NCBI RefSeq assembly: GCF_963921235.1
Contig: NC_086097.1
Location: forward strand, 3,472,001-3,536,000
DNA from: Mobula hypostoma
Lineage: Eukaryota
Direction: 5' to 3'
Length of the DNA: 64,000 nucleotides
Shown one piece after another: positions 9,401 to 60,000 of the stretch; position 1 is the first letter of the stretch, and each line of letters starts with the position of its first letter. The translations under genes were made by a program, and so were the position numbers. Below the pieces are notes generated by a model, which saw only the letters and a list, made by a program, of their open reading frames with translations, had not been told where the DNA came from and made no database searches.

Positions 9401-11563
9401 AACTTTGGTTGTAATCGTAAATTTAAGTCTCCCCCACATTTCAAGAGACCTTCTGTTTCCGTTACCATAATATGAGTAATCTTCTGGAAGAAACTAATAT
9501 CACTTCCTGGGGGTGCATATATATTCAATAAAGTAAATGACTTTCCATCTATATTCCCCCTTACCAGAATATATCTGCCCTCCTTATCTCCCATTTCGAA
9601 TACTGTTTCAAAATTTAGCTTACTTGAGATGAGAATAACAACTCCTCTTCTATGTTCTGATTTATATGAGGAGAAAAACAAATTAGTGAAACCCATTCTC
9701 TTTAATTTTCCATGCTCATGATCACTTAAGTGAGTTTCCTGTAAATATACATGGGCTTGTTCTTTTTTCATTTTTGATAGAATTTTACTGCGCTCGACTG
9801 AATTCAACAGCCCATTGACATTAAAAGAAATTACTTTTACTTTGCCCTTAGACATGTGTATTTATCTAGTATATCATTGAAATTTGCAGACTATAACTTA
9901 ATCGATCTACTCCCTGAACAAATAAGAGCCAAGAAACACGAATAATTAAAAAAAATAATGAAGGTGTGATTCCAAGGCTGGGGTCCCTAGATGACCCTGG
10001 GTTGAGCTAGAAGAAAAGTTTAGCCGTGGGGGATAGCCCCTCCTACCTGTGGTTTGAGGGCCCCCATTGCAGTACCTATAAAAGTAAGTAAAAAGAAACT
10101 ATGTCCATTACACAGAAATAATTTCCCTGTGTATTGCTCCCATGTATATATTCTCATTAGGTGGGTAAAAAGGAATGAATAAATGAATTTTTAAAAATTG
10201 TGTAATATAAAATCCACATATTTCTCGAGATAGGTATATCACCGTCTATTTTTGCTTCCTTTTAGTTTATCAGCACTTTTAAAGTTAGCCAAACCTTATG
10301 GCTCTTCTGAAGGAGGTGAGGGCTGCCCTCGGAGAACTGACAGTCTCTTCCTAAACACATCAAAGTTGCTGGTGAACGCAGCAGGCCAGGCATTCGGGCT
10401 GAGACCCTTCGTCAGGACGCTTGCTGCATTCACCAGCAACTTTGATGTGTGTTGCTTGAATTTCCAGCATCTGCAGAATTCCTCGTGTTTGAGTCTCTTC
10501 CTAAAATCCTTCTCTCGTCCTGCTCCCGTCCCCTGCTTTCTACGTTCTCTTACTATTTCCCAAGCAGTTCGGGATATCTGCTCAGCCAGACTTTCCCTTG
10601 GTTTGACCACGCTAATGGGCAGTCCTCTGTTGTTCATGTCTGTAGTCGCCTCTTCCACCGTTTGGTATAGTCGTATCCCTTCTTAGCAGGAGTTTGGAAT
10701 TTAATCTTTTCTTGCTTTAAAATTCGTTTCGCTTCAGAATACTCCTTCCGTTTCTATAGGACCGCCGGGGGGGGGGGGAGGGGGCGCGGTAATCATGATC
10801 GAAGTATATTAACTTCCCATTCCAAAAAACCCTCTTCTTACCCCAGGTCCTTCATAGAATCTCCGCTTTGCTCTTGAATTCGAAGCAATTTAAGTACTAT
10901 TGAGCGCGGTTTACTTTGTCTGCCTCCAGGAGGCCGCTGGATGAGCTAATGATGTGCCCTCTCAATTTCAATCTCCATACTCTGGGGAATCTCCAGTACT
11001 TCTCGCTGCAACTTGTCTACAAAGTCCATCATCGACAATCCCTCCACTCCTTTGGGAACATTATAAATCCTGATATTTTTCCGTTGCGATCTTCCCTCCT
11101 GGTCAAGCAATTTACTTTCCTGTTGATCTAATATTTTTATCGTTTTACTTAGTATCTGTTCCATGTTTTGCACGCGGTCTTCCACCCTCTCAATTCGAGT
11201 CTCTGCCACCACTATTTTCTGATTGACGTTGGTGAGCTCTGACTTGATATCATTGAGTTGCTGTTTTATATCTTTTTGGACTTCCCTTATCTCTTCCAAA
11301 ATCCTTATCATATTTGCCGCTTCGCCTGCACGAGGCCCCACGTCAGCTTTGCTGCCATGCGCACGTGTAGGAGAGCCGCACGCTGCACCTCTCTCTTCCA
11401 TAGGCTTTTTTTATCTCCATTCTTTTTCCCCATTCTTGCCCCCCTTATCAATTCAGATATTTTCGAAAGATCTTGTATTTGATGGATTAACGGGGCAAAA
11501 TATGCCTTTTTCTAGAGGAGCTGTTGATTTAAGCTGCCATTCTGAACGATGACATCACTGGAA
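6473..11563 (-). mobile_element. L1/Tx1-clade LINE: 5' UTR, ORF1, ORF2 endonuclease and RT; frameshifted and 3'-truncated
   Basis: ORF1 coiled coil + RKNIRIYNVP/IERAH (10946-11401); endonuclease SFNVNGL/LQETHL/NIYAPP/GGDLN/SDHAP; RT SPGSDG, FRPISVLNVD, DAEKAFD, YADD; poly(A) at 6474-6483; ~18-bp TSD cctcgtatgata(a)cccttt at 6455-6472 and 11564-11582. Confidence 0.95.
10356..10491. mobile_element. Short fold-back Penelope-derived insert in L1 ORF1
   Basis: Inverted arms (cacatcaaagttgctggtgaa / ttcaccagcaactttgatgtg); exact 14-bp TSD agtctcttcctaaa at 10342-10355 and 10492-10505. Confidence 0.85.
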
Positions 11564-13132
11564 CCTCGTATGATAACCCTTTCATTCCTGGAATCATCCT
11601 TGTGAACCTCCTCCGGACCCTCTCCAATGCCAGCACATCTTTTCTACTTTGTACAATGAGAGGTCCAAAACTGTCCACACTACTCAAGGTGAGGCCTCAC
11701 CAGTGCCTTATAAAGCCTCAGCATCACATCCCTGCTCTTGTATTCCAGACCTCTTGAAAAGAATGCTAACATTGCATTTGCCTTCCTCACCACCGACTCA
11801 ACCTGCAAGTTAATCTTCAGGGTGTTCTGCACAAAGACTCCCAAGTCCCTCTGTGTCTCAGATTCCTGGATTTTCTCACTGTTTAGAAAATAGTCTGTGC
11901 ATTTATTTCTACTACCAAAGTGCATGACCATGCATTTTGTCCAGGTCCTGCTGCATTTGGATATGAACTGCTTCACTAGCGAGGAGTCACGAATGCTGCA
12001 GGACATTGTACAGTCATCTGCCAACATCCCCACTTCTGACCTTATGACAGAAGGAAAGTCATTAATGAAGCAGCAGAAAATGGTTGGTCCCAGGACACTT
12101 CCCTGAGGAACTCCTGCAGTGATGTCCTGAGGATGTGATAATTGACCTCCAACCACCACGACTATCTTCCTTTGTGTCAGGTATGATTCCAACCAGCAGA
12201 GGGTTTTCCCCCTAATTCCCATTGACTTTATTTTAGCGAGGGCACCTTGATGCCATACTCGGTCAAATGCTGCCTTGATGTTGAGGGCTATCACGCTCAC
12301 CTCACCACTGGTATTTAGCTCTTTGTTCCATGTTTGGACAAAGGAAGTGATGAGGTCAGGAGCTGAGCGGCCTTGACGGAACCCAAACTGGGCATCCGCA
12401 AGCAGGTTATTGCCGAGTAGTTGGTGACCCCTCCCATCACTTTGCTGATGATTCAGAGTAGGATGACAGGCCGACACTTGACTGGGTTGGACTTGTTCTG
12501 TTTCTTGTGTATAGGACATACCTGGGCAATTTTCCACATTGCCGGGTAGATGCCGGTGTTGTAACTGTACTGGAACAGCTTGGTTAATGACGTGACAAGT
12601 TCTGGGCGCAAGTCTTCTGGACTATTGCGGGACTTTGTCTGGGCCCATAGCCTTCGCTAGATACTTAGTGCTTTCAGCTGTTTCTCGACATCACGTATAG
12701 TGAATAGGATTGGTCGCATACTGACATCTGGGATGCTGGGGACTTCTAGAAGATCATCTATTCAGCACTTCTGACTGAAGCTTGTTGCAAATGCCTCAGC
12801 CTTACCTTTTGCACAGGTGTGCTGGGCTCCTCTGTCAGTGAGGATGGGGATATTTGTGGAGCCTCCTCCTCCAGTGAGTTGTTTGATTGTCCACCACCAT
12901 TCACGGCTGAATGTAGAAGGACTACAGAGCTTAGACCTGATCCACTTAGTCCTGTCAATTACTTATTGCTTATGGTGTCTGGCATGAAAGTAGCCCTGTA
13001 CTGTGGTGATGCCTCATATTGACGTTTGTCTGGGCATGCTTCACTGCACTTTTCATTGAACCAGGGTTAATCCCGTGGACGCATGGTAATGTTAGAGTGG
13101 GGGATACGCCGGGCCATGAGGTTACAGATTGT

Positions 13133-13381
13133 CAAAGTTGCTGGTGAACGCAGCAGGCCAGGCAGCATCTCTAGGAAGAGGTACAGTCGACGTTTCAGGC
13201 CGAGACCCTTTGTCAGATTTTGTCTCTTACTAACTTTTCCTTCAGTTAGTCCTGGCGAAGGGTCTCGGCCTGAAACGTTGACTGTACCTCTTCCTAGAAA
13301 TGCTGCCTGGCCTGCTGCATTCACCAGCAACTTTGATGTGTGTTGCTTTAATTTCCAGCATCTGCAGAATTCCTGTTGTGT
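13133..13381. mobile_element. Fold-back Penelope-derived insert with two opposed, mutated hammerhead motifs
   Basis: ~85-bp inverted arms (13133-13216 vs 13250-13336); exact 14-bp TSD aggttacagattgt at 13119-13132 and 13382-13395. Confidence 0.9.
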
Positions 13382-13474
13382 AGGTTACAGATTGTAGTTG
13401 AGTACAATTCTGCTGTTGCTGATGGTCCACAGTGCCTCATAGATGCCTAGTCTTGGGCTGCCAGATCTGGTTGT

Positions 13475-15530: not shown

Positions 15531-15682
15531 ACACAATAGTATCAAGAACATGAGATGATGAGTCCTTGAAAATGAGTCCATGGGTGGTGGGAACAGTTCA
15601 GTAATACTGCAAGTGAAGTTGAGTGAAATTTGAGTGTAATTGTCATTCAACCACATATGAATAGCCACGAACACTGCCAAAC

Positions 15683-18600
15683 TTGTCAAATGCCTCCTGA
15701 CAAAGGTCACTCCATTCAAATCTTTCACTCTTCCCTAGGAGTTTTGTTAGGGGGAGAGCGATGTCAGCAAAGTTCTTACAAAATTTTCTATAATACCCAA
15801 CCATCCCTAAAAACCTTTTCAAAGCTTTCTTGCTAATTGGAACAGGAACTTCAGCAATAGCTTGAACCTTGGCCTGTACAGGAGCCAGCTGGCCTTGGCC
15901 CACCACATACCCCAGATATGTGACTGTGACATGGCCAGATTCACTTTTAGCAAGGTTCACCGTAAGACTGGCCTTGGAAAGTCTGTCAAATCGTTCCTCT
16001 ACAGCTGCAATATGTTCTTCCCATGTGTCACTCCAAACCACTAGGTCATTAATATAAACTCCTGTGCTTCCTAACCCTCCAATCACCAAATTGATCATTC
16101 TTTGAAATGTTTCTGGGGCATTCTTCATCCCAAGGTGTAAAACATTGTGTTCATACAGTCTAGATGGTGTCATAAATGTTGATATCTCTTTAACCCTCTC
16201 TGTTAAAGGAACACCCCGGTATCCTTTTAACAAGTCAATCTTAATAAGGTATTTAGCCTTCCCCACTCTATCAATACAGTCATCCATTCCCTTTCTTAGT
16301 TCTTTCTTGTTTTTAATTCCTTGTTCAACCCTTTTACTTTCCTCGAAGTTCACTCTGTGAAGATGCCATTTCATAAGCTGGGCTAAATTCATAATGATGT
16401 CATGCACTGCACCTGTGCACTATTTCAAAACACCAATTATTCCTTTTACTTGTTTTTTCGGCTTTGGCTCCAACTGGTGGACCTTATCAGTAATATTTTC
16501 CAAAACAATGGAATTCTGACATTTTGGTGAGTCTAGATTCAGTGGGCAAACATGCCTTTCCATTCCATTATCAGATTTCACGACTCCATTTTGTACTTCA
16601 ACAATTCTCCCAGCTGCAATTCTAGTAAACAAGTGTCTTATTTTGACGACCATTTTGTAAACTTTCCTTAGCAAAGTCACAAAGGTTACTATATCCCTTC
16701 CAGAGTTCTCTGAGTAGAGTCAAAGGTCCTTTTGGCTTGTAACTGAACACAGGTTCCAACAAATTACCCTTCACTGCCTTCTGAATCGAATCTCCACCAC
16801 TAAATAAAAGGAGGGGAACCCCCTCATCCCAATTTTCCTCATTTCTCACACAATGATGTCCACCTAAAGGCATACTGTAAGCCATGTTTAAAATTTCAGC
16901 CCTGTAACCTTTCAAGATCACCACGTGACTTGCAAGCACAGTGGCTGGTCTCCACTTCCTCATCAACATCCCATCTTTAAGGTAACATCCCACTGACTCT
17001 CTCTGAACCTCCTCTCCTGTGAGAGCCATCTCCCTTAAAGCCACCGTTTCAGAATCTCGCTTCTGTTCCTTGATACATTCCTTTCTCAACAAAGACAAAC
17101 CTTTCTTATACACCTTACCCTTACCAATTGTACTACGCTCTAAGTCCTGCTGAAATCTGGAAGGTAGAAAAGTCTCTGACAGATCATAATAATTTAAACC
17201 TTTGGTCTTGCTTTAGGCCTCAGCAGCTGCTTTTCTCATTAGCTGAGTTGCTGAAACACTCTTATCCTGGACAGCTGTCAACATGCCTCCATGGTTTATC
17301 AAACTCAGCACCATCATCAGGCTGATCAGAATCATGTATACATCATGAAAGAGTCCAAATATACTACCCATCTGATTACGACCTATACTTCGACTTGTAT
17401 CCATAGCAACTTCCATTCCAAAACCACAACAACTCTTCCTCCTCTCCATAATATTACTCTGAATAACAGCATGACCTTACGGGTGCTTACTTCCAAATGT
17501 CCAAACAAAATTCAACAAACCAGCACATCCTGTCTCAGCAGGCCTTTGTCCTGCAAGCAGGGTCAAAGATCGCGCAAGCAATCCAACCTTTTCCATCACT
17601 TTATCCAAAAGTCCAGGAACAGCACTTTTCCCATTATTTTCAGCAACATTGACCTCACCAGCTTTTAAAACACGGTCAGATACAAATGACTGAGAATCCT
17701 CACATTCCACTGGTACCAAGGTTAACCCCTTACTCACTGAACCAAGATCATCTGACATACTAAAACTGCATTCCTTTTCAACCAAGTCAGCCACCTCAGA
17801 CTTTAACTGAGTTTCAACACAAGGTTCAGAATCTTGTGAACTCACAGGTACTTCAACAACCTGAACACATTCAATCGGAACAGCTGCCTCTTCTGGGCTG
17901 TCATCACTAGTCCCAGTTTCAAATTCAAGGTCATCTCGAACCTCCCAGCTACTCTCTGGCAAACTCTCTTCTGCAGTAAACTCAACCTCATTGGTTAAAA
18001 CTTCTTCGTCTGCTTTCTCTTCAAACCCCTTCAGGGTAGGGGCATCCTCTGCCACTGGGTATGCCCTTACCTCAGCAGGAACACAACTTTTAAATTCATC
18101 ACACAAAACTAGCCCCTCCGAGCTGTAAAAATCATCAGGGTCCGACACTAAACCTCTTTGCTGCAACCTCTCCCTTTTAAACTGTCTCTGCCTTTCTGCC
18201 GCGTGATCTTCACGTTGCCATTTCTCCCTTTCAAGCTATCTCTGTCTTTCTGCCTCCTCTCTCTGTTTTGCTGCTTCTTTTCTCCGTTTCTCTGCCTCTC
18301 TGGCCTCTCTCTCGAGCTGTTTAATTTCACTTCATGCTCCCCCTTTAATATTTCCAACTGAAGCTAAAACACATCCTCAGCAGATTCACCTTCCGCGAAC
18401 AACTCTAACGCCTCCTCATCAAATGTTCCCTTATCTATATAATATTCAACTATTTTCCTTTGAATTTCTACCTTAGTCACACCCTTCTGTACCTCAATTC
18501 TCAATTCTTTATTCTTTATTCTTTAGCAATGTCCCGCAACTCATACTTTTTAGCAAACTTCAAAGTCACCAGGTCTGGTGATTTCAGGAAGTCTCTAACA

Positions 18601-19890: not shown

Positions 19891-20667
19891 TTGCAAACGA
19901 GATATCAAGCACATAAAGATACCAGTAAAATTCAGTCACTCAGCAAAAAACCCCGAGTCCACGAAGTTGTAGCAGTCTACATTCGAACACAATATGCTTG
20001 TTGGAGGTGCTGGAGGGCAGCACGACTCCATCTGGATGTCGTGCCACACCTTCCCTGGCACTCTGGTGGAGTGCACCGACTCCTACATCTCTTTCCCGGG
20101 CAGCTGTAAAGAGGTGGCACCGTGGCCTGAAGCCGAATCCTCCCTACGACCGAGGCCACGCAGCTCCCCCACTGTCTGCCAATGTATCATCAAATCGGAC
20201 TCGCAGCATTCCACATCAACAATGTCCAACAGGGCCTTGCAACCACAACAAAAGCGATTAAGACAACCACTCGCTGTTAGACTACACACCAACTTTGCAC
20301 ACCAACTCCTCTAATACTCTCTGCCACAAGATCCATACCAAGTCCAGCTCGTTTAGTCGCTCTACCCACGGGCAACCACTGAGGTGGCAGAACTGCAGAA
20401 CTTTAACTCCTTGTTGTGCTGCAGGATCTGTGATCATGAAAAATATGTTTACAAAAGACAATAATACCTTTGGTTAGCCCCTTAGAAGCTGCTGCAACTG
20501 AGCACATCACCATCTTACCGGAATCCCCTCTGGTTCAGGAATCTGATGATTGGGGGGTAATAATTGTCCCTGAACCTGGTGGTGTAGGTCCTGAGGCTCT
20601 TACACCTTCTTCCTGATGGCAGCAGGGTGAGCAGAGCATGTCCTGGGTGGGGGAGCGGTCCCTGATA

Positions 20668-22257
20668 TTGAAATTAGTCCTCACTCTTAATAATTTCTCC
20701 TTTGGCTCCTCCCACTTCCTCCAAACTAAAGGTGTAGCCATGGGCACCAGTATGGGTCGCAGCTATGCCTGCCTTTTTGTTGGCTTTGTGGAACAATCTA
20801 TGTTCCGTGCCTATTCTGGTATCTGTCCCCCACTTTTCCTTCGCTACATCGACGACTGCATTGGCGCTGCTTCCTGCACGCATGCAGAACTCGTTAACTT
20901 TATTAACTTTGCCTCCAACTTTCACCCTGCCCTCAAGTTTACCTGGTCCATTTCCGACACCTCCCTCTACTTTCTAGATCTTTCTGTTTCTATCTCTGGA
21001 GACAGCTTATCCACTGATGTCTACTATAAGCCTACTGACTCTCACAGCTATCTGGACTATTCCTCTTCATACCCTGTCTCTTGCAAAAATGCCATCCCCT
21101 TCTCGCAATTCCTCCATCTCCGCCACATCTGCTCTCAGGATGAGGCTTTTCATTCCAGGATGAAGCAGATATCTTCCTTTTTTAAAGAAAAGGGCTTCCC
21201 TTCCTCCACCATCAACTCTGCTCTCAAACGCATCTCTCCCATTTCACACACATCTGCTCTCACTCCATCCTCCCACCACCCCACTAGGGATAGGGTTCCC
21301 CTTGTCCTCACTTACCACCCCACCAGCCTCTGGGTCCAACATATAATTCTCAGTAACTTCCGCCACCTCCAACGGGATCCCACCACTAAGCACATCTTTC
21401 CCTCCCCCCACTTTCTGCTTTCCACAGGGATCGCTCCCTACACGACTCCCTTGTCCATTCGTCCCCCCCATCCCTTCCCACCGATCTCCCTCCCGGCACT
21501 TATCCGTGTAAGCGGAACAAGTGCTACACATGCCCTTACACTTCCTCCCTCACCACCATTCAGGGCCCCAGACAGTCCTTCCAGGTGAGGCGACACTTCA
21601 CCTGTGAGTCGGCTGGGGTGATATACTGCGTCTGGTGCTCCCGATGCGGCCTTCTATATATTGGCGAGACCCGACGCAGACTGGGAGACCGCTTTGCTGA
21701 ACACCTACGCTCTGTCCGCCAGAGAAAGCAGGATCTCCCAGCGGCCACACATTTTAACTCCACGTCCCATTCCCATTCTGATATGTCTATCCACGGCCTC
21801 CTCTACTGTAAAGATGAAGCCACACTCAGGTTGGAGGAACAACACCTTATATTCCGTCTGGGTAGCCTCCAACCTGATGGCGTGATCATTGATATCTCTA
21901 ACTTCCGTTAATGCCCCACCTCCCCTTCTTACCCCATCCCTTATTTATTTATTTATTTATTTATTTGTCTATCTATCTATTTATTTATTCATCCATCCAT
22001 CCTTTTTTCTCTCTGTCCCTCTCACAATCACTCCTTGCCTGTTCTCCATCTTCCTCTGGGCTCCCCTCCCCCTTTCTTTCTCCTTAGGCCTCCCATCCCA
22101 TGATCCTCCCCCTTTTCCAGCCTCGTATCCCTTTTGCCAATCAACTTTCCAGCTCTTGGCTCCATCCCTCCCCCTCCTATCATTTCAGAACTCCCCCTCT
22201 CCCTTTCAAATCTCTTACTATCTCTTCTTTCAGTTAGTCCTGATGAAGGGTCTCGGC
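20668..22257 (+). mobile_element. Penelope-like element (Neptune-type): RT + GIY-YIG endonuclease, 5'-truncated, one frameshift
   Basis: KGVAMGT, RYIDD, FLDL, YYKPTDSHSYL in ORF 20638-21588; Cys linker GTYPCKRNKCYTC (~21495-21535); VIYC...LYIGETRRRLGDRFAEH in ORF 21585-21911; pyrimidine-rich 3' region ending in agtcCTGATGAagggtctcggc. Confidence 0.95.
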
Positions 22258-28283: not shown

Positions 28284-28590
28284 AAGGCATCCGTTAGTCT
28301 TGCAAGACCATGGATCTGCGCCTGGAAAGTCTTCACTCTCCAGGGCGCAGGCCTGGGCAAGGTTGTATGGAAGACTGACAGTTGCCCATCTGCAAGTCTC
28401 CCCTCTCCATGACACCAATGTTGTCCAGGGGAAGGGCATTAGGACCCATACAGCTTGGCACCAGTGTCATCGCAGAGCAATGTGTGATTAAGTGCCTTGC
28501 TCAAGGACACAACACGCTGCCGCGGCTGGGGCTTGAACTCACGACCTTCAGGTCACTAGTCCAATGCCTTAACCACTTGGCCACGTGCCC
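28284..28590 (-). mobile_element. tRNA-derived CORE-type SINE inserted in a (TAA)n tract
   Basis: Minus strand: A box TGGCCAAGTGG, B box GAGTTCAAGCC, then CCTTGAGCAAGGCACTTAA; flanked by ataataataa on both sides. Confidence 0.75.
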
Positions 28591-42340: not shown

Positions 42341-42895
42341 GACCTGTAGTTTGAGGTTTGTCAATAGATTACTTTGAAAGGCCTGTAAAAAGCACATTGC
42401 AGGAATCTAGTCTATTCAAAATAAAGGTGTGAATTAGTTTAAATTTGAAAGAGCACGGACAGAGGTCAAAACAAGTGAGTCCAGTCAGCAGGACAGACAG
42501 GGGCAAGGTGCGGCGGTCTCATCAGCTGAACTGAACTTACTTTAATGCAAGAAGTCTCACAAGGAAGCCGATAAACTCAGTGTGTGGATTGGGACTTGGA
42601 ATTGTGAAATTATAATTATTACGGCAGCAAACTTGAGGGATGTGCAGGATTGGTCGTTTAACATCCTGGGTGTCAGTGTTTCCTGAGGTATGAAAGGAGG
42701 AGGAGTTGCACTTTTCGACCACCAGGCAGAATTAGGCCACCTTCTGTGATTCTTATAGTGAAATAATCTAGTGTCCTTTATTTTTACAGGCAGGGTACCA
42801 TATCATTAAAATTTCATTTTAGAACCAAGTTAATAGTGTTTTCAGACAATTTATTTACATTTGAAAACAAGCAATTCAGACAGAATAATCAGGAT

Positions 42896-43048
42896 CACTA
42901 AGTCTTTCTTCAGTTAGTCCTGACGAAGGGTCTCGGCCTGAAACGTCGACTGTACCTCTTCCTAGAGATGCTGCCTGGCCTGCTGCGTTCACCAGCAACT
43001 TTGATGTGTGTTGCTTGAATTTCCAGCATCTGCAGAATTCCTGTTGTT
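42896..43048 (+). mobile_element. Short Penelope-derived insert with intact hammerhead motif
   Basis: Begins with the same cttcagttagtcctga text that ends the Penelope element at 22228-22257; 14-bp TSD agaataatcaggat (42882-42895) / agagtaatcaggat (43049-43062). Confidence 0.88.
42916..42951 (+). ncRNA. Minimal type I hammerhead ribozyme motif
   Basis: AGUC-CUGACGA-AGG(GUCUCGG)CCU-GAAA-CG-UC^GACU: stem I AGUC/GACU, complete catalytic core, stem II, palindromic ACGU replacing stem III, GUC cleavage triplet at 42945-42947. Confidence 0.8.
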
Positions 43049-44206
43049 AGAGTAATCAGGATAATGCTTAACCAAAGCTGAATGACTGTATTTTTGGGTG
43101 ACACTACTACAGCTCCGGACATCCCAGAGTTCAGACTCCATTCTGTAAGGAGTCTCTGTAAGTCCTTCCCGTGGAAGCTGTGGGGTTTCTCCAGAGTGCT
43201 CCAGTTTCCTCGCACAGTCCAAAGACTTGCTGGCACATTAATAGGTCATTGTAAATCGTCCTGTGATTAGGTTAGGGTTAATCGGGCTTGTTGGCGGTAA
43301 ATCTAAGTAAATAAAACCAATTACAAGTCAGTGCAGTACAGTGAGACACGGAGTGCAGTTATTAACCCAGATGCAAAACACTTCAAGGTTTTCTGAAACC
43401 TGCTTTTATACTACTGTAGTATTTGTCTTGAAAACATTTTCCCAATTCTCTGAAGTAGACTTGTTCAACATTACAAAATATTTACAACTTCAAAACTTAT
43501 TTAACATTTTAAGCAAAATGCTTTGTTATTTTTTGTTCTGTGGACCTATCCTTCTCTCCTGACAGCAGTGAAGGCTGACGAGAAAGGTCAGAAATGTCTG
43601 AAATATCTATGATGGTAACTGTTATGTAAATGCATTGTTAAATCTCCATGTTTTCAAGAAGCTGTGATGGACAGCTCTCTTGTTGCAAGCAGAAAGAAGG
43701 AGGAGTTTTCATGCCTCTTTCCCATGCTGCTGGTCTCAGATTTACATTTCAGCTGCCAGTGCCTTAGAGCAACACACACACAAAATGCTGGAGAAACTCA
43801 GCAGGTCAGACAGCATCTATGCAAATGAAAAGCAGTGACGTCTGGAGCCAAGATCCTTCATCAAGACTGGAAAGGAAAGAGGAAGATGCCAGAATTCATT
43901 TCTATAGATGTTGCCTGACCTGCTGAGTTCCCCCAGCATTTTGCATGTGTTGATCTGGATTTCCAGTATCTGCAGAATCTCCTGTGTTTACAATGTCTTA
44001 AGATCTTCAAGGCACTAAAATTCTTCACCTCTAAACTTCTTTCTCCTTCTTAAAGTCCACATACTTGCCCAGGAATTTCAAAAGTTTAAAGTTCAAGGTA
44101 TATTAATTATCAAAGTATGGATATCTCCATATCCAACCTTGAGATTTATTTTTTTTTACAGGTATTCATAGTAGAACAAAGAAATATAATCAAATCAATG
44201 AAACAC

Positions 44207-45589: not shown

Positions 45590-47270
45590 GTACTTAGAAA
45601 CAGTCTTCACTAGCAGTATGGTGGAAGTTCCAGGCGCCAGGGAGCATGAAGTGTGTTCAGGTTCTTGGGAAATTGAAAGATCTGAAGGTAGATAAATCAC
45701 CTGGACCAGATGGTGTACACCCCAGAGTTCTAAAGAGGTGGCTGAAGAGATCATGGAGGCACTCGTAATGATCTTTCAAGAATCAGGAGAATAGTTCCAG
45801 AATACCGGAAAATCACAAATTTCACTCCACGCTTCAAGAAGGCAGAGAGGCAGAAGAAAGGAAATTATAGGCCAATTAGTTTGACCTCAGTGGTTGGGAA
45901 GATGTTGGTATCGATTGTTAAGGATGAGGACTCAGGGTACTTGGAAGCCATGATAAAATAGGCTGATTGGCATGAAGGAAGCCTTTTCTGGCTGGCTCCT
46001 GGTGGCTGGTGGTGTTCCACAGAGGTCTGTGTTGGGGCCGATTCTTCACAAACAGAAGAAAATCTGCAGATGCTGGACATTCAAGCAACACACACAAAAT
46101 GCTGGAGGAACTCAGCAGGCCAGGCAGCATCTATGGAAAAGAGTACAGACAACGTTTCATGCCGAGACCCTTTGTCAAGACTACGGGGCTATTTCCTGCT
46201 GAAGGGTCTCAGCCCAAAATGTCAACTGTATTCTTTTCCATAGATGCTGCCTGGCCTGCTGAATTCCTCCAGCATTTTGTGTGTGTTGCTGGGACCAATT
46301 CTTTTTACATTATATGTCAATGATTTGGATGATGGAATTGATGGCTTTGTTGCAAAGTTTGCAGATATGAAGATAGTGGTGGGGCTGGTAATTTTGAGGA
46401 AGTAGAGAGGCTACAAAAGGACTTAGATTAGGAGAATGGGCAAAGAAGTGGCAGATGGAATACAGTGTCAGAAATTGTATGGTCATGCACTTCGAAGAAA
46501 TGAAAGGGTTGACAATTTTCTAAATGGAGAGAAAATACAAAAAAAACCTGACATACAAAAGGACTTTGGAGACCTCGTGCAGGATTCCCTAAAGGTTAAT
46601 TTGCAGGGTGAGCCTGTGGTGAGCAAAGCAAATGTGACGTTCGCATTAATTTTAAGAGGATTAAAATATAAAAGCAAGGATGTAATGTACTGGTGAGGCC
46701 TCATTTATAAAGCACTGGTGAGGCCTCACTTGGAGTATCGTGATCAGTTTTGGTCCCCTTAGAAAGGATGTGCTGAAACTGGAGAGGGTTCAAAGGAGGT
46801 TCATGAAAATGATTTCAGGCTTGTCATATGAAGAATGTTTGATAGCTCTGGGCCTGTATTCACTAGAATTCAGAAGAATGAGGGGTGAACTCATGGAAAC
46901 CTATTGAATAGTGAAAGGCCTTGATAGGGTGGATGTGGTGAGGATGTTTCCTATGGTGGGAGAGTCTAAGACCAGGGGACACAGCCTCAGAGTAGAGAGG
47001 TGCCCTTTAAGAATAGATATGCGGAGGAATTTCTTTAGCCAGAGAGTGGTGAATCTGTGGAATTCTTTGCCACAGGCAGCTGTGGAGGCCAAATCTTTAT
47101 GTATATTTAAGGAAGAGGTTGATAGATTCTTGATTGATCAGGGCATGAAGGGATAGGAGGAGAAGGCAGGAGATTGGGGCTGAGAGGAAAATTGGATCAG
47201 CCATGATGAAAGGACGGAGCAGACTCAATGGGCCAAATGGCCTAATTCTGCTCTTATATCATATGGTCCT
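45590..47270 (+). mobile_element. CR1 LINE RT and 3' end, interrupted by a fold-back Penelope insert (46048-46290)
   Basis: KSPGPDG, NYRPISLTS, GVPQ.SVLGP and the CR1 C-terminal domain (ORF 46911-47156). Confidence 0.88.
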
Positions 47271-57049: not shown

Positions 57050-60000
57050 TGCGGCGAGCTGCAGCTCCTTAGGGACTGTGTTTGAGAACTGGAGATGCAG
57101 CTTGATCATCTTCGTCTGGTCAGGGAGAGTGAGGAGGTGATGGAGAGGAGCTAGAGGCAGGTAGTCACACCGGGGCCTCAGGAGACAGACAAGTGGGTAA
57201 CAGTCAGGAGAGGGAAGGGCAGGAGTCAGAGGCTAGAGAGTATCCTGGTGGCTGCCCCCTTAACAGTAAGTACTCCTGTTTGGCCTTCCTGGGGGAAGCA
57301 ACAGTGGCCATGCCTCTGGCACAGAGTCTGGCCCTGTAGCTCAGATGGGCAGGGAAAGGAAGAGGATGGCAGCAGTAATAGGGGACTCTATTGTGAGGGG
57401 GTCAGACAGGCGATTCTGTGGACGCGGGAAAGAAACATGGATGGTAGTTTGCCTCCCAGGTGCCTGGGTCCAGGATGTTTCTGATTGTGTCCATGATATC
57501 CTGAAGTGGGAAGGTGAACAGCCAGAGGTTGTGGAACCTATTGGTACCCACGATATAGGTAGGAGAAGGGAGGAGGTCCTGAAAACAGACGACAGGGAGT
57601 TAGAAAAGAAGTTGAGAAGCAGGACCTCAAAGGTTGTAATCTCGGGATTACTGCCCGTGCCACGTGACAGTGAGTATAGAAATAAAATGAGGTGGAGGAT
57701 AAATGCGTGGCTGAGGGATTGGAGCAGGGGGCAGGGATTCAGATTTCTGGATCATTGGGACCTCTTTTGGGGCAGGTGTGACCTGTACAAAAAGGACGGG
57801 TTGCACTTGAATCCCAGGGGGACCAATATCCTGGCGGGGAGGTTTGCTAAGGCTACTGGAGAGAGTTTAAACTAGAATTGCTGGGGAGTGGGAACCGAAC
57901 TGAAGAGACTGGGGAAGAGGCAGTTGGCTCACAAATAGAGAAAGCCTGGAGACCGTGTGTGAGGGAGGATAGAGAAAGGATACATTCAGACTGAAGGTTT
58001 GAGATGTATCTATTTTAATGCAAGGAGTATCATGAACAAAGCGGATGAGCTAATAGCGTGGATCAGTACTTGGGGCTATGATGTTGTGGCCATTACAGAG
58101 ACTTGGATGGCTTGGGGGCAGGAATGGTTACTTCAAGTGCTGGGCTTTAGATGTTTCAGAAAGGACAGGGAGGGAGACAAAAGAGGTGGGGGCATGGCAG
58201 TGTCAGAGATAGTGTCATGGTTGCAGAAAAGGTGGACGTCATGGAGGGATTGTCTACGGAGTCTCTGTGGGTGGAAGTTAGAAACAAGAAGGGGTCAATA
58301 ACTCTACTGGGTGTATTTTATAGACCGCCCAATAGTAACAGGGATGTCGAGGAGCTATTAGGGAGACAGATTCTGGAACGGTGCAATAATAACAGGGTTG
58401 TCGTGATGGGAGATTTTAATTTCCCAAATATTGATTAGCATCTCCCTAGAGCAAGGGGTTTCGATGGGGTGGAGTTTGTTCGGTGTGTTCAGGAAGGTTT
58501 CCTGACACAATATGTAGATAAGCCTACAAGAGGAGAGGCTGTGCTTGATCTGGTATTGAGAAATGAATTTGGTCAGGTGTCAGGTCTCTCAGTGGGAGAA
58601 TATTTTGGAGATAGTGATCACAATACTATCTCCTTTCCCATAGTCATGGAGTTGACTTGCAGCAGACTGAAAAGCTTGAGCATATAGACATTAAAAAAGA
58701 GAATATGCTGGAGCTTTTGGAAATTGGTCACCGGTCACCGGGACCGGATGAGATGTACCCCAGGATACTGTGGGAGGTGAGGGAGGAGATTGCTGAGCCT
58801 CTAGCAATGATCTTTGCATTATCAGTGGGGACGGAAGAGGTTCTGGTGGATTGGAGGGTTGCAGATGTTGTTCCCCAAGAAATGGAGTAGAGATAGCCCA
58901 GGAAATTATAGACCAGTGAGTCTTACTATGGTGATTGGTAAGTTGATGGAGAAGATCCTGAGAGGCAGGATTTATGAACATTTGGAGAGGTATAATATGA
59001 TTAGGAATAGTCAGCAATGCTTTGTCAAGTGCAGGTCATGTCTTACAAGCTTGATTGAATTTTTTGAGGATGTGACTAAACAGATTGATGAAGGAAGAGC
59101 AGTGGATATAGTATATATGGATTTCAGCAAGGCATTTGATAAGGTACCCCATGCAAGGATTATTGAGAAAGTAATTAGGCATGGGATCCAAGGGGACATT
59201 GCTTTGTGGATCCAGAAATAGCCTGTCCACGGAAGGCAAAGGGTGGTTGTAGCCGGGTCATATTCTGCATGGAGGTCGGTGACCAGTGGTGTGCCTCAGG
59301 GATCTGTTCTCGGACCCCTTCTCTTTGTTATTTTTATAAATGACCTGGATGAGGCAGTGGAGAGATGGGTTAGTAAATTTGCTGATGACACAAAGGTTTG
59401 GGGTGTTGTGGATAGTATGGAGGGCTGTCAGAGGTTACAGTGGGACACTGATAGGATACAAAACTTGGCTGAGAAGTGGCAGATGGAGTTCAACCCAGAT
59501 AAATGTGAGGTGGTTCATTTTGGTAGGTCAAATATGATGGCAGAATATAGTATTAATGGTAAGACTCTTGGCAGTGTGGAGGATCGGAGGGATATTGGGG
59601 TCCGAGTCCATAGGACACCCAAAGCTGCTGCGTAGGTTGACTCTGTGGTTAAGAAGGCATACGGTGAATTGGCCTTCATTAACTGTGGGACTGAGTTTAA
59701 GAGCCGAGAGGTAATGTTGCAGCTCTATAGGACCCCGGTCAGACCCCACTTGGAGTACTGTGCTCAGTTCTGGTCGCCTCGCTACAGGAAGGATGTGGAA
59801 ACCATAGAAAGGGTGCAGAGGAGATTTACAAGGACGTTGCCTGGATTGGGGAGCATGCCTTATGAGAATAGGTTGAGTGAACTTGGTCTTTTCTCCTTGG
59901 AGCGACAGAGGATGAGAGGTGACTTGATAGACGTGTATAAGATGATGAGAGGCATTGATCGTATGGATAGTCAGAGTCTTTTTCCCAGGACTGAAATGGC

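Follow-up and report, generated by a model that had tools for sequence, protein, structure and literature searches.

A lone minimal hammerhead motif in Mobula hypostoma as a probable 5′-truncated insertion of an abundant Penelope-like element

The closest described relatives of the locus considered here are the minimal hammerhead motifs of Penelope-like elements (PLEs), most of which, in the available part of the account of Cervera and de la Pena (2014, PMC4209133), stand alone and are judged "probably related to truncated PLEs", and for which a G10.1-C11.1 pair and an unpaired base after A9 have been described. The elements themselves, in the portion of Craig et al. (PMC8557442) drawn on here, are typically marked by a high degree of 5′ truncation, by an adjacent inverted 5′-truncated copy, by a hammerhead within the pseudo-LTR (pLTR), and by a tail of 30–40 bp that is often present at one end only; a CX2-5CxxC linker before the GIY-YIG domain is also described, its Cys-X4-Cys-X2-Cys form being linked to Neptune. 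In PAc, the Poseidon-clade PLE of Anolis carolinensis (Frangieh et al., 2024, PMC11167929), reverse transcription starts internally, 85–92 nt downstream of the hammerhead cut, the RNA beyond the start site is required, and cleavage is assisted by the protein. Lastly, the idea that the animal retrozymes derive from the pLTRs of PLEs is already in print, in the parts available of Cervera and de la Pena (2020, PMC7229834) and of Li, Clavereau and Pollet (2026, bioRxiv 10.64898/2026.07.22.740005).

The 64,000 nucleotides of contig NC_086097.1 of Mobula hypostoma that were analysed (the window) contain a motif of this minimal kind inside a repeat of 153 bp (Table 1), which in our judgement is probably a dead-on-arrival, extremely 5′-truncated insertion derived from a PLE that is young, very abundant and equipped with an endonuclease and a Neptune-type linker, the qualification "dead on arrival" being drawn by analogy from one PLE of another clade (Poseidon, in Anolis). 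In the repeat numbering used throughout, C17, the base before the predicted cut, is position 0, and upstream positions are negative.

Table 1. Coordinates of the features discussed (positions in the window, unless a contig is named)
Feature	Position	Strand	Remarks
153-bp insertion, about −51 to +101	42896..43048	+	probably an extremely 5′-truncated PLE copy; BLASTN and sequence reading
Left target-site duplication copy	42882..42895		exact part 42886–42895, TAATCAGGAT
Right target-site duplication copy	43049..43062		exact part 43053–43062
Minimal type-I hammerhead	42916..42951	+	sequence reading, pattern counts, energies, descriptor scan
Helix I, 4 bp	42916–19 with 42948–51		AGUC pairs with GACU
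CUGACGA box	42920–26	+	
Bulged A	42927		between A9 and helix II
Helix II, 4 pairs	42928–31 with 42936–39		GGGU with GCCU
Helix II loop	42932–35		CUCG
GAAA box	42940–43		
ACGU palindrome in the place of helix III	42943–46		
Predicted cleavage site	after C42947		C17
Broken coding PLE copy	20617..22257	+	RT fragment, frameshift, linker and GIY-YIG ORF, CT-rich 3′UTR, hammerhead start
RT fragment	20617–21588		no Pfam match
Cys-rich linker and GIY-YIG ORF	21390–21911		Pfam GIY-YIG, E=6.8e-5, 23.5 bits (cut-off 22.6)
Start of hammerhead region in the broken PLE	22217–22257		ends mid-hammerhead
Head-to-head inverted pair	13132..13382		one 13-bp target duplication, GGTTACAGATTGT; minus arm −27..+57, plus arm −56..+103
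Head-to-head inverted pair of 5′-truncated units	10355..10494		one 14-bp target duplication, AGTCTCTTCCTAAA
Older decayed head-to-head pair	46050..46290		80–85% identity; arms end at +102 and +68
Decayed head-to-head pair	43768..43990		73–81% identity; arms end at +68 and +103
Mini-PLE array L080	C2:157816300-157817900		4.1 units of 310 bp, 99% identity, −33..+277; one 13-bp target duplication
Mini-PLE array L081			2.5 units of 285 bp; one 12-bp target duplication
Mini-PLE array L082			units of 435 bp

The initial annotation had read a full hammerhead core at this place with ACGU standing for stem III, and the letters are as it said: AGTC / CTGACGA / short hairpin / GAAA / CG / TC^GACT, in which C3 U4 G5 A6 N7 G8 A9, G12 A13 A14, A15.1, U16.1 and C17 can all be read directly, both catalytic boxes, CUGANGA and GAAA, followed by U16.1 and H17, being present at 42920–42947. 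The core, helix I, the ACGU and the position at a PLE terminus also uphold its assignment to the minimal type-I hammerheads of the PLE kind. The palindrome that replaces helix III (positions 15.1–16.1) offers a pairing that would permit a dimer. Helix II, which had been drawn as AGG/CCU closing a loop of 7 nt, is indeed present, although in another register, as the one with the bulged A42927 is better (−6.0 vs −4.6 kcal/mol) and also fits an abundant core variant, with C for U before GAAA, in which G10.1 and C11.1 form the canonical pair and the base that follows A9 is unpaired. In the window copy this pair is G-U (A-U in the other register), and likewise in the 46,306 exact cores of the genome. 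The minimum-energy fold calculated for the monomer is a hairpin that pairs core bases with one another (GACG with CGUC; −12.2 kcal/mol vs −5.4 for the hammerhead shape); such a fold would be inactive, and it agrees with what is reported for motifs of this type, whose in vitro activity is low and depends on dimers or protein. The octamer CTCTTCCT forms a direct repeat around the hammerhead in most copies, at −45..−38 and +9..+16 (the region of 42903–42910, and 42956–42963, in the window), and could favour template slippage across the ribozyme.

When set beside the minimal hammerheads of PLEs in the available part of PMC4209133, the motif shares with them both catalytic boxes, the lack of helix III with a palindromic 15.2–16.2, a short helix I (4 bp, with a G-U that may extend it), one additional base left unpaired after position 9 and before helix II, its place in the terminal repeat of a PLE, the mostly single and truncated-PLE-linked occurrence, and the existence of close dual motifs on opposite strands. 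It differs from those of Schistosoma in a helix II of 4 bp instead of 7–8 bp, and from those with a conserved G10.1-C11.1 in having G-U in the window copy, the G-C being found in the variant of 9,280 copies. Across copies the motif is near invariant, as in D. virilis, whereas in most animals it is reported there as highly variable. The Rfam hammerhead models give no match in the whole window, either at the gathering score (at which no family of any kind is found) or at E≤10, and none against 42880–43070 at E≤10, an outcome to be anticipated for a motif without helix III, as those models expect a closed one. Below the gathering score there is a tRNA-like match at 28523–28585 on the minus strand (21.8 bits, E=5.7), possibly the head of a tRNA-derived SINE.

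In the 3.48-Gb genome (200 contigs) an exact search for the 28-nt core gives 46,306 matches (23,109 + 23,197), while its reversed control gives 0 + 0, and the variant with C before GAAA contributes 9,280 exact copies (4,627 + 4,653), with at least 55,586 exact copies retaining all the conserved catalytic bases, several-fold above the approximately 4,000 of coelacanth and 9,000 of Xenopus given in the available text of PMC4209133. The very large family suspected from the window is therefore real, and so are the roughly ten related copies that had been counted there, as BLASTN finds 16 matching segments that group into about 11 insertion units; the copy at 42916–42951 is the only one in the window to keep the exact core. 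Of the genome scan that had been proposed for the motif, the search with the exact core was fruitful, and the search of the window with the Rfam models returned no hammerhead. It had also been expected that the core would be more conserved than its flanks: in a small sample of 23 copies not selected via the motif, the reference itself among them, the hammerhead has a non-CpG mismatch of 1.2% to that natural reference copy, and the flanks have 5.7% and 5.4%, so that the expectation stands for the figures as such, but the excess in the flanks comes mostly from subfamily-diagnostic sites, and the exact core is retained in 14 of the 23. This lower mismatch is mild evidence that the source elements would keep the hammerhead motif.

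The unit of about 150 bp is the coding PLE's own last 146 bp or so, because the ORF and the 3′UTR run straight into it: at all of the other 19 PLE loci, chosen through the GIY-YIG ORF (L010–L028), the ORF and the CT-rich 3′UTR continue into unit positions 6 to 110–153 with 90–98% identity. The window's own coding copy is 5′-truncated, frameshifted between 20617–21588 and 21390–21911, and stops mid-hammerhead at 22257; the match to its 3′ end noticed earlier at 22228–22257 is genuine and extends over 22217–22257, with 87.8% identity over 41 bp to the first part of the 153-bp unit. In its second ORF the linker C-KRNK-C-YT-C (Cys-X4-Cys-X2-Cys) precedes the GIY-YIG domain, and from this linker alone the PLE would be of the Neptune type, in agreement with the Neptune-type RT/GIY-YIG protein that had been proposed. 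A search of the genome with the GIY-YIG ORF, in which 150 matches were scored out of 201,312 first-look candidates, gave 92–100% identity in all 150; in the N-terminal part of the ORF all 150 scored matches are 95–100% identical, many of them lying within an open frame of 1043 codons, and by this identity and these many long open frames the PLE is young and intact. Exact cores stand to ORF-leader sequences as 46,306 to 804 genome-wide. One further copy, at L069 (3795–6029, minus strand), has an open frame of 745 codons; 123 bp are duplicated in tandem internally, close to its start, and by an internal deletion the RT region directly abuts the terminal 28 bp of the tail. The window also holds an ORF with a GDSL/SGNH esterase-like domain (57270–57875, plus strand) and two ORFs with RVT_1 reverse-transcriptase domains (15643–16419 and 11680–12621, both minus strand), which probably belong to LINE-type retroelements unrelated to the PLE.

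Where the PLE is found in direct tandems, with periods of 3,515–3,518 bp, its complete order can be followed: at the junction of L079 (3,518 bp) the 3′UTR is succeeded by the hammerhead, the tail end at +102, about 37 nt, and the ATG of the long ORF, which places the hammerhead at the pLTR–ORF junction, approximately 139 nt upstream of the next ATG. This is the place it has in PAc (PMC11167929), with the difference that the ORF of PAc starts inside the hammerhead, while in this family about 139 nt separate the cut from the downstream ATG, and that the clade here is Neptune-type by its linker and is known from sequence alone, PAc having been studied in vitro.

The anatomy of the copies was read mostly from samples selected by exact core or by ORF, among them 48 loci centred on exact cores that yielded 52 distinct copies (L003, a repeat of L002, being left out), together with an unselected sample of 62 segments; the unselected segments lie in about 354 kb, on which the end-point statistics rest. 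The 5′ ends of the 52 core-centred copies fall at −27..−75 in 24, at −140 and −157 in two, at −277..−497 in 10 and at −530..−822 in six, and the remaining 10 reach −927, the limit of the reference. The 3′ ends, by contrast, are bimodal, as of 127 copies that reach the tail about 50 end at +60..+77 and 63 at +100..+103; these two alternative PLE 3′ ends, some 36 nt apart, constitute the "tail", and the 153-bp unit has the longer one. As in PAc, two reverse-transcription start sites, tens of nucleotides apart and about 65–100 nt past the cut, would explain this genomic tail (PMC11167929).

Close pairs number 13 among the first 100 cores listed, 12 of them head-to-head and one tail-to-tail, and among those same 100 there are no same-strand neighbours within 3.5 kb. 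The inverted pairs sit within a single target duplication, and in 14 of 15 one arm ends at +100..+105 (long tail) and the other at +57..+73 (short tail); the exception, L055, has arms ending at +22 and +102, and in none of the 15 do both arms end at the same site. The extension of both target strands found in PAc would fit such pairs (PMC11167929). In the pair at 13132–13382 both hammerheads are mutated, the one at 13248–13283 by A6 to G and its inverted partner by G8 to A. The pair at 10355–10494 accounts for a mir-2-like Rfam match at 10351–10454, which was discarded as a microRNA gene, since it scores 36.9 and 36.1 bits on the two strands, below the cut-off of 45.5, and corresponds to the two inverted PLE arms.

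The target duplications of the PLE are 10–15 bp long. That of the 153-bp unit had been given as 14 bp; the duplication is real, exact over the 10 bp TAATCAGGAT, but when extended to the full 14 bp it matches at only 13 of 14 positions, and it encloses a single copy, not a tandem. Heavy 5′ truncation, head-to-head inverted partners in one target duplication and alternative 3′ ends, the hallmarks of PLEs, are accordingly present, and the earlier view that the unit was mobilised by PLE machinery is confirmed by its target duplication, by a 3′ end of the PLE type and by its identity to the PLE terminus. Compared with the canonical endonuclease-positive PLEs, as far as the available part of PMC8557442 describes them, the family has the same 5′ truncation, partial tandems forming pLTRs, inverted 5′ partner, one-end tail, hammerhead in the pLTR, and CX2-5CxxC linker before GIY-YIG, and nothing essential differs. 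Two traits can be set against that description: the combination of a long-tail and a short-tail arm in 14 of 15 pairs, and the clustering of 5′ ends at the edge of helix I, of which the same part of the source makes no mention.

This clustering deserves a closer description. The 5′ ends accumulate from about +31 to −59, beyond which their number falls more than 10-fold; when pooled they peak at −31..−35 with 20 per 10 nt, against 0.3–0.5 per 10 nt beyond −76, and nine of the 24 short copies, read by eye, start at −31..−33. The peak coincides with the 5′ edge of helix I; only one of 127 copies has its end at the cleavage site (−2..+3). Among the unselected segments 51 of 62 reach the tail, and of these 51 16 start at −59..−26, 21 at −25..+31 and 12 further upstream. 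The pile-up at the first base of helix I is seen at L030, L054, L058, L055, L066, L053, L034, L039 and L040 and in the window arm 46050–46183, and it is made up of the 5′ ends of short copies and of the inner junctions of inverted pairs, with no pile-up at the cleavage site; L055 is a perfect palindrome centred at −31..−33. The sequence just before these positions resembles a branch point followed by a polypyrimidine and CAG tract. Contigs from four sequencing runs of uncertain library type have loose ends at about −44, −33..−30, +66..+68 and +99..+107, which agree with the copy boundaries and may be just the same genomic copies. A full-length RNA starting just upstream of the hammerhead was considered as the source of the short copies and rejected, as the counts of upstream anchors fall only gently: of the leader-keeping copies 400 have the hammerhead, 332 the anchor at −43, 314 that at −64 and 271 that at −107, from which the upstream repeat of the long copies must run well beyond −107.

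Elsewhere in the genome the family includes mini-PLE arrays with tandem units of 310, 285 and 435 bp, each unit consisting of the hammerhead, the tail, the leader and the first 75–150 nt of the ORF. These arrays were inserted as multimers, in one event each; the 310-bp and the 285-bp arrays lie within single target duplications of 12–13 bp. All three retain at least −33..+215, with the leader and the ORF start, which are absent from the 150-bp unit. The 310-bp type of junction is found six times at only two loci, the second being C50:58412484; it joins +277 to −33, and the segment removed begins with GT and ends with AG after a good polypyrimidine tract. An origin by splicing was nevertheless set aside, given the weak donor GTATCC, the presence of the type at only two loci and the junctions of the other arrays (+215/−66 and +290/−158), which are without GT-AG; the GT-AG ends are possibly a coincidence.

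[quoted passage not shown] Unlike them, it is single and not a head-to-tail tandem of hammerhead units of 150–450 bp, and its hammerhead is the minimal PLE type without helix III, whereas the canonical type has helix III and contacts between loop 1 and loop 2. The rare tandem arrays of 285–435 bp fit the definition of a retrozyme well, and it is these mini-PLE arrays, not the window's unit, that are the retrozyme-like members of the family.

If the anatomy of the copies is read together with the published PLE mechanism, the insertion would have begun with a staggered cut of the target by the PLE protein, giving the duplication of 10–14 bp; reverse transcription would then have started at the internal site, some 101 nt downstream from the hammerhead's cut, and only about 150 nt would have been copied before the cDNA was joined to the other end of the target. 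The hammerhead would be a passenger at 42896–43048, its place in the parent element being the junction between the 3′UTR or pseudo-LTR and the next ORF, where it would be active only as a dimer, since it is without helix III, through the ACGU palindrome and probably with the help of protein. As the window holds no intact same-strand partner for the motif at 42916–42951, the lone genomic copy is most likely catalytically silent. Moreover, a unit that ends at the reverse-transcription start site of the PLE is without the downstream RNA that the Anolis PLE needs, and for this reason would be unlikely to serve as a template again. There are points against this reading: the 5′ ends are not smooth, and a discrete short template RNA could give the same shape; one marker set is commoner among the short copies; and, against the notion of dead on arrival, a copy ending at +101 still holds the inner start site near +66.

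The first two of these points could lead back to the distinct, non-autonomous and retrozyme-like RNA of the initial annotation, that is, to a hammerhead–tail module of about 150 nt that would be a true SINE- or retrozyme-like element with its own template RNA, copied in trans by the PLE protein. It would account for short copies being in excess and having their 5′ ends bunched at −27..−59, and in particular for those that start at −31..−33; the mini-PLE arrays indicate that short hammerhead-bearing RNAs can be templates, and dispersed genomic monomers of retrozymes have been described (bioRxiv 10.64898/2026.07.22.740005, in its available part). As to the markers, the set GCG/TAT is carried by 13 of 24 short copies vs 5–6 of 28 longer ones, which is compatible with age differences and no private lineage: each of the three sets defined at +6/+7, +18 and +28, including that of the window unit (TA, G, C), occurs in both short and long copies, so that there are no private diagnostic sites. 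The 5′ ends are moreover heterogeneous, from −27 to −75 in the short core-centred copies and, for the wider samples, upstream from +31, the unit is single, none of the first 100 cores listed having a same-strand neighbour within 3.5 kb, the mini-arrays keep the leader and ORF start that it lacks, and their 310-bp junction is confined to two loci. With the colinearity to the PLE end in 19 of 19 loci, the shared subfamily markers and an end at the reverse-transcription start, such an independent element is improbable, and the claim of the initial annotation in this respect is not sustained. Quite unlikely too, in our estimation, is that a programmed end, instead of a random truncation point, lies at −31 to −33, where helix I has its 5′ edge, whether a discrete 5′ end of the template RNA or a telomerase-like boundary set by a protein-bound hammerhead.

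A different question is whether the motif, although hammerhead-shaped, was selected in the PLE for something other than self-cleavage, as a protein-binding fold or a template boundary for a telomerase-related RT, or is a hammerhead that parasitises the PLE. The near absence of 5′ ends at the cleavage site, with their peak at the edge of helix I, and the monomer fold that ties up the core would agree with it, as would the Anolis PLE, where mutating the hammerhead left in vitro insertion unaffected and RNA-seq gave no reads ending at the cut (PMC11167929), and the statement, in the portion of PMC8557442 available, that clades without hammerheads proliferate well and that hammerheads may "simply parasitize PLEs". 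However, all the conserved catalytic bases persist in the at least 55,586 exact copies, the hammerhead shows the lower mismatch in the 23 copies (reference included), and in that same Anolis PLE cleavage is protein-assisted and follows a C3/G8 rescue logic (PMC11167929); a role apart from cleavage is consequently doubtful, though to be taken seriously. A mere chance match without ribozyme meaning, for which one could invoke the silence of the Rfam models and the thermodynamic preference against the hammerhead shape, is effectively refuted: the pattern CTGANGA-N6-30-GAAACGTC is found once in the window vs 0.02 expected and was matched in two of 100 shuffles, the full 36-mer with up to three mismatches is found twice vs 0 expected, the reversed control is empty against 46,306, and the position is exactly that of the published PLE hammerheads, at the pLTR–ORF junction. 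A descriptor scan of the collected DNA gave 83 matches vs none in shuffles, all from one hammerhead family with seven distinct core sequences, which leaves nothing to compare between families for covariation. The extremely 5′-truncated PLE insertion is therefore the reading that we retain.

In summary, a lone hammerhead repeat of 150 bp with a target duplication is expected PLE debris and should not be counted as a retrozyme. Three usable facts about the family are added here, namely that the 5′ edge of helix I, unlike the cleavage site, is marked by the 5′ ends of copies, that nearly all inverted pairs combine a long-tail with a short-tail arm, and that short mini-PLE multimers are inserted in one event. 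Were the programmed end, unlikely as it is, to be true, hammerhead–tail modules of about 100–135 nt would be a regular product of the PLE, and the mini-PLEs of 285–435 nt would be copied either in multimeric form or from small circles by rolling-circle reverse transcription. With at least 55,586 exact cores, the 3.48-Gb genome of Mobula hypostoma has among the largest sets of intact hammerhead motifs seen in one genome, and the coexistence of so many hammerheads with a PLE that has many long open frames makes it good material on the purpose of the hammerhead in PLEs.
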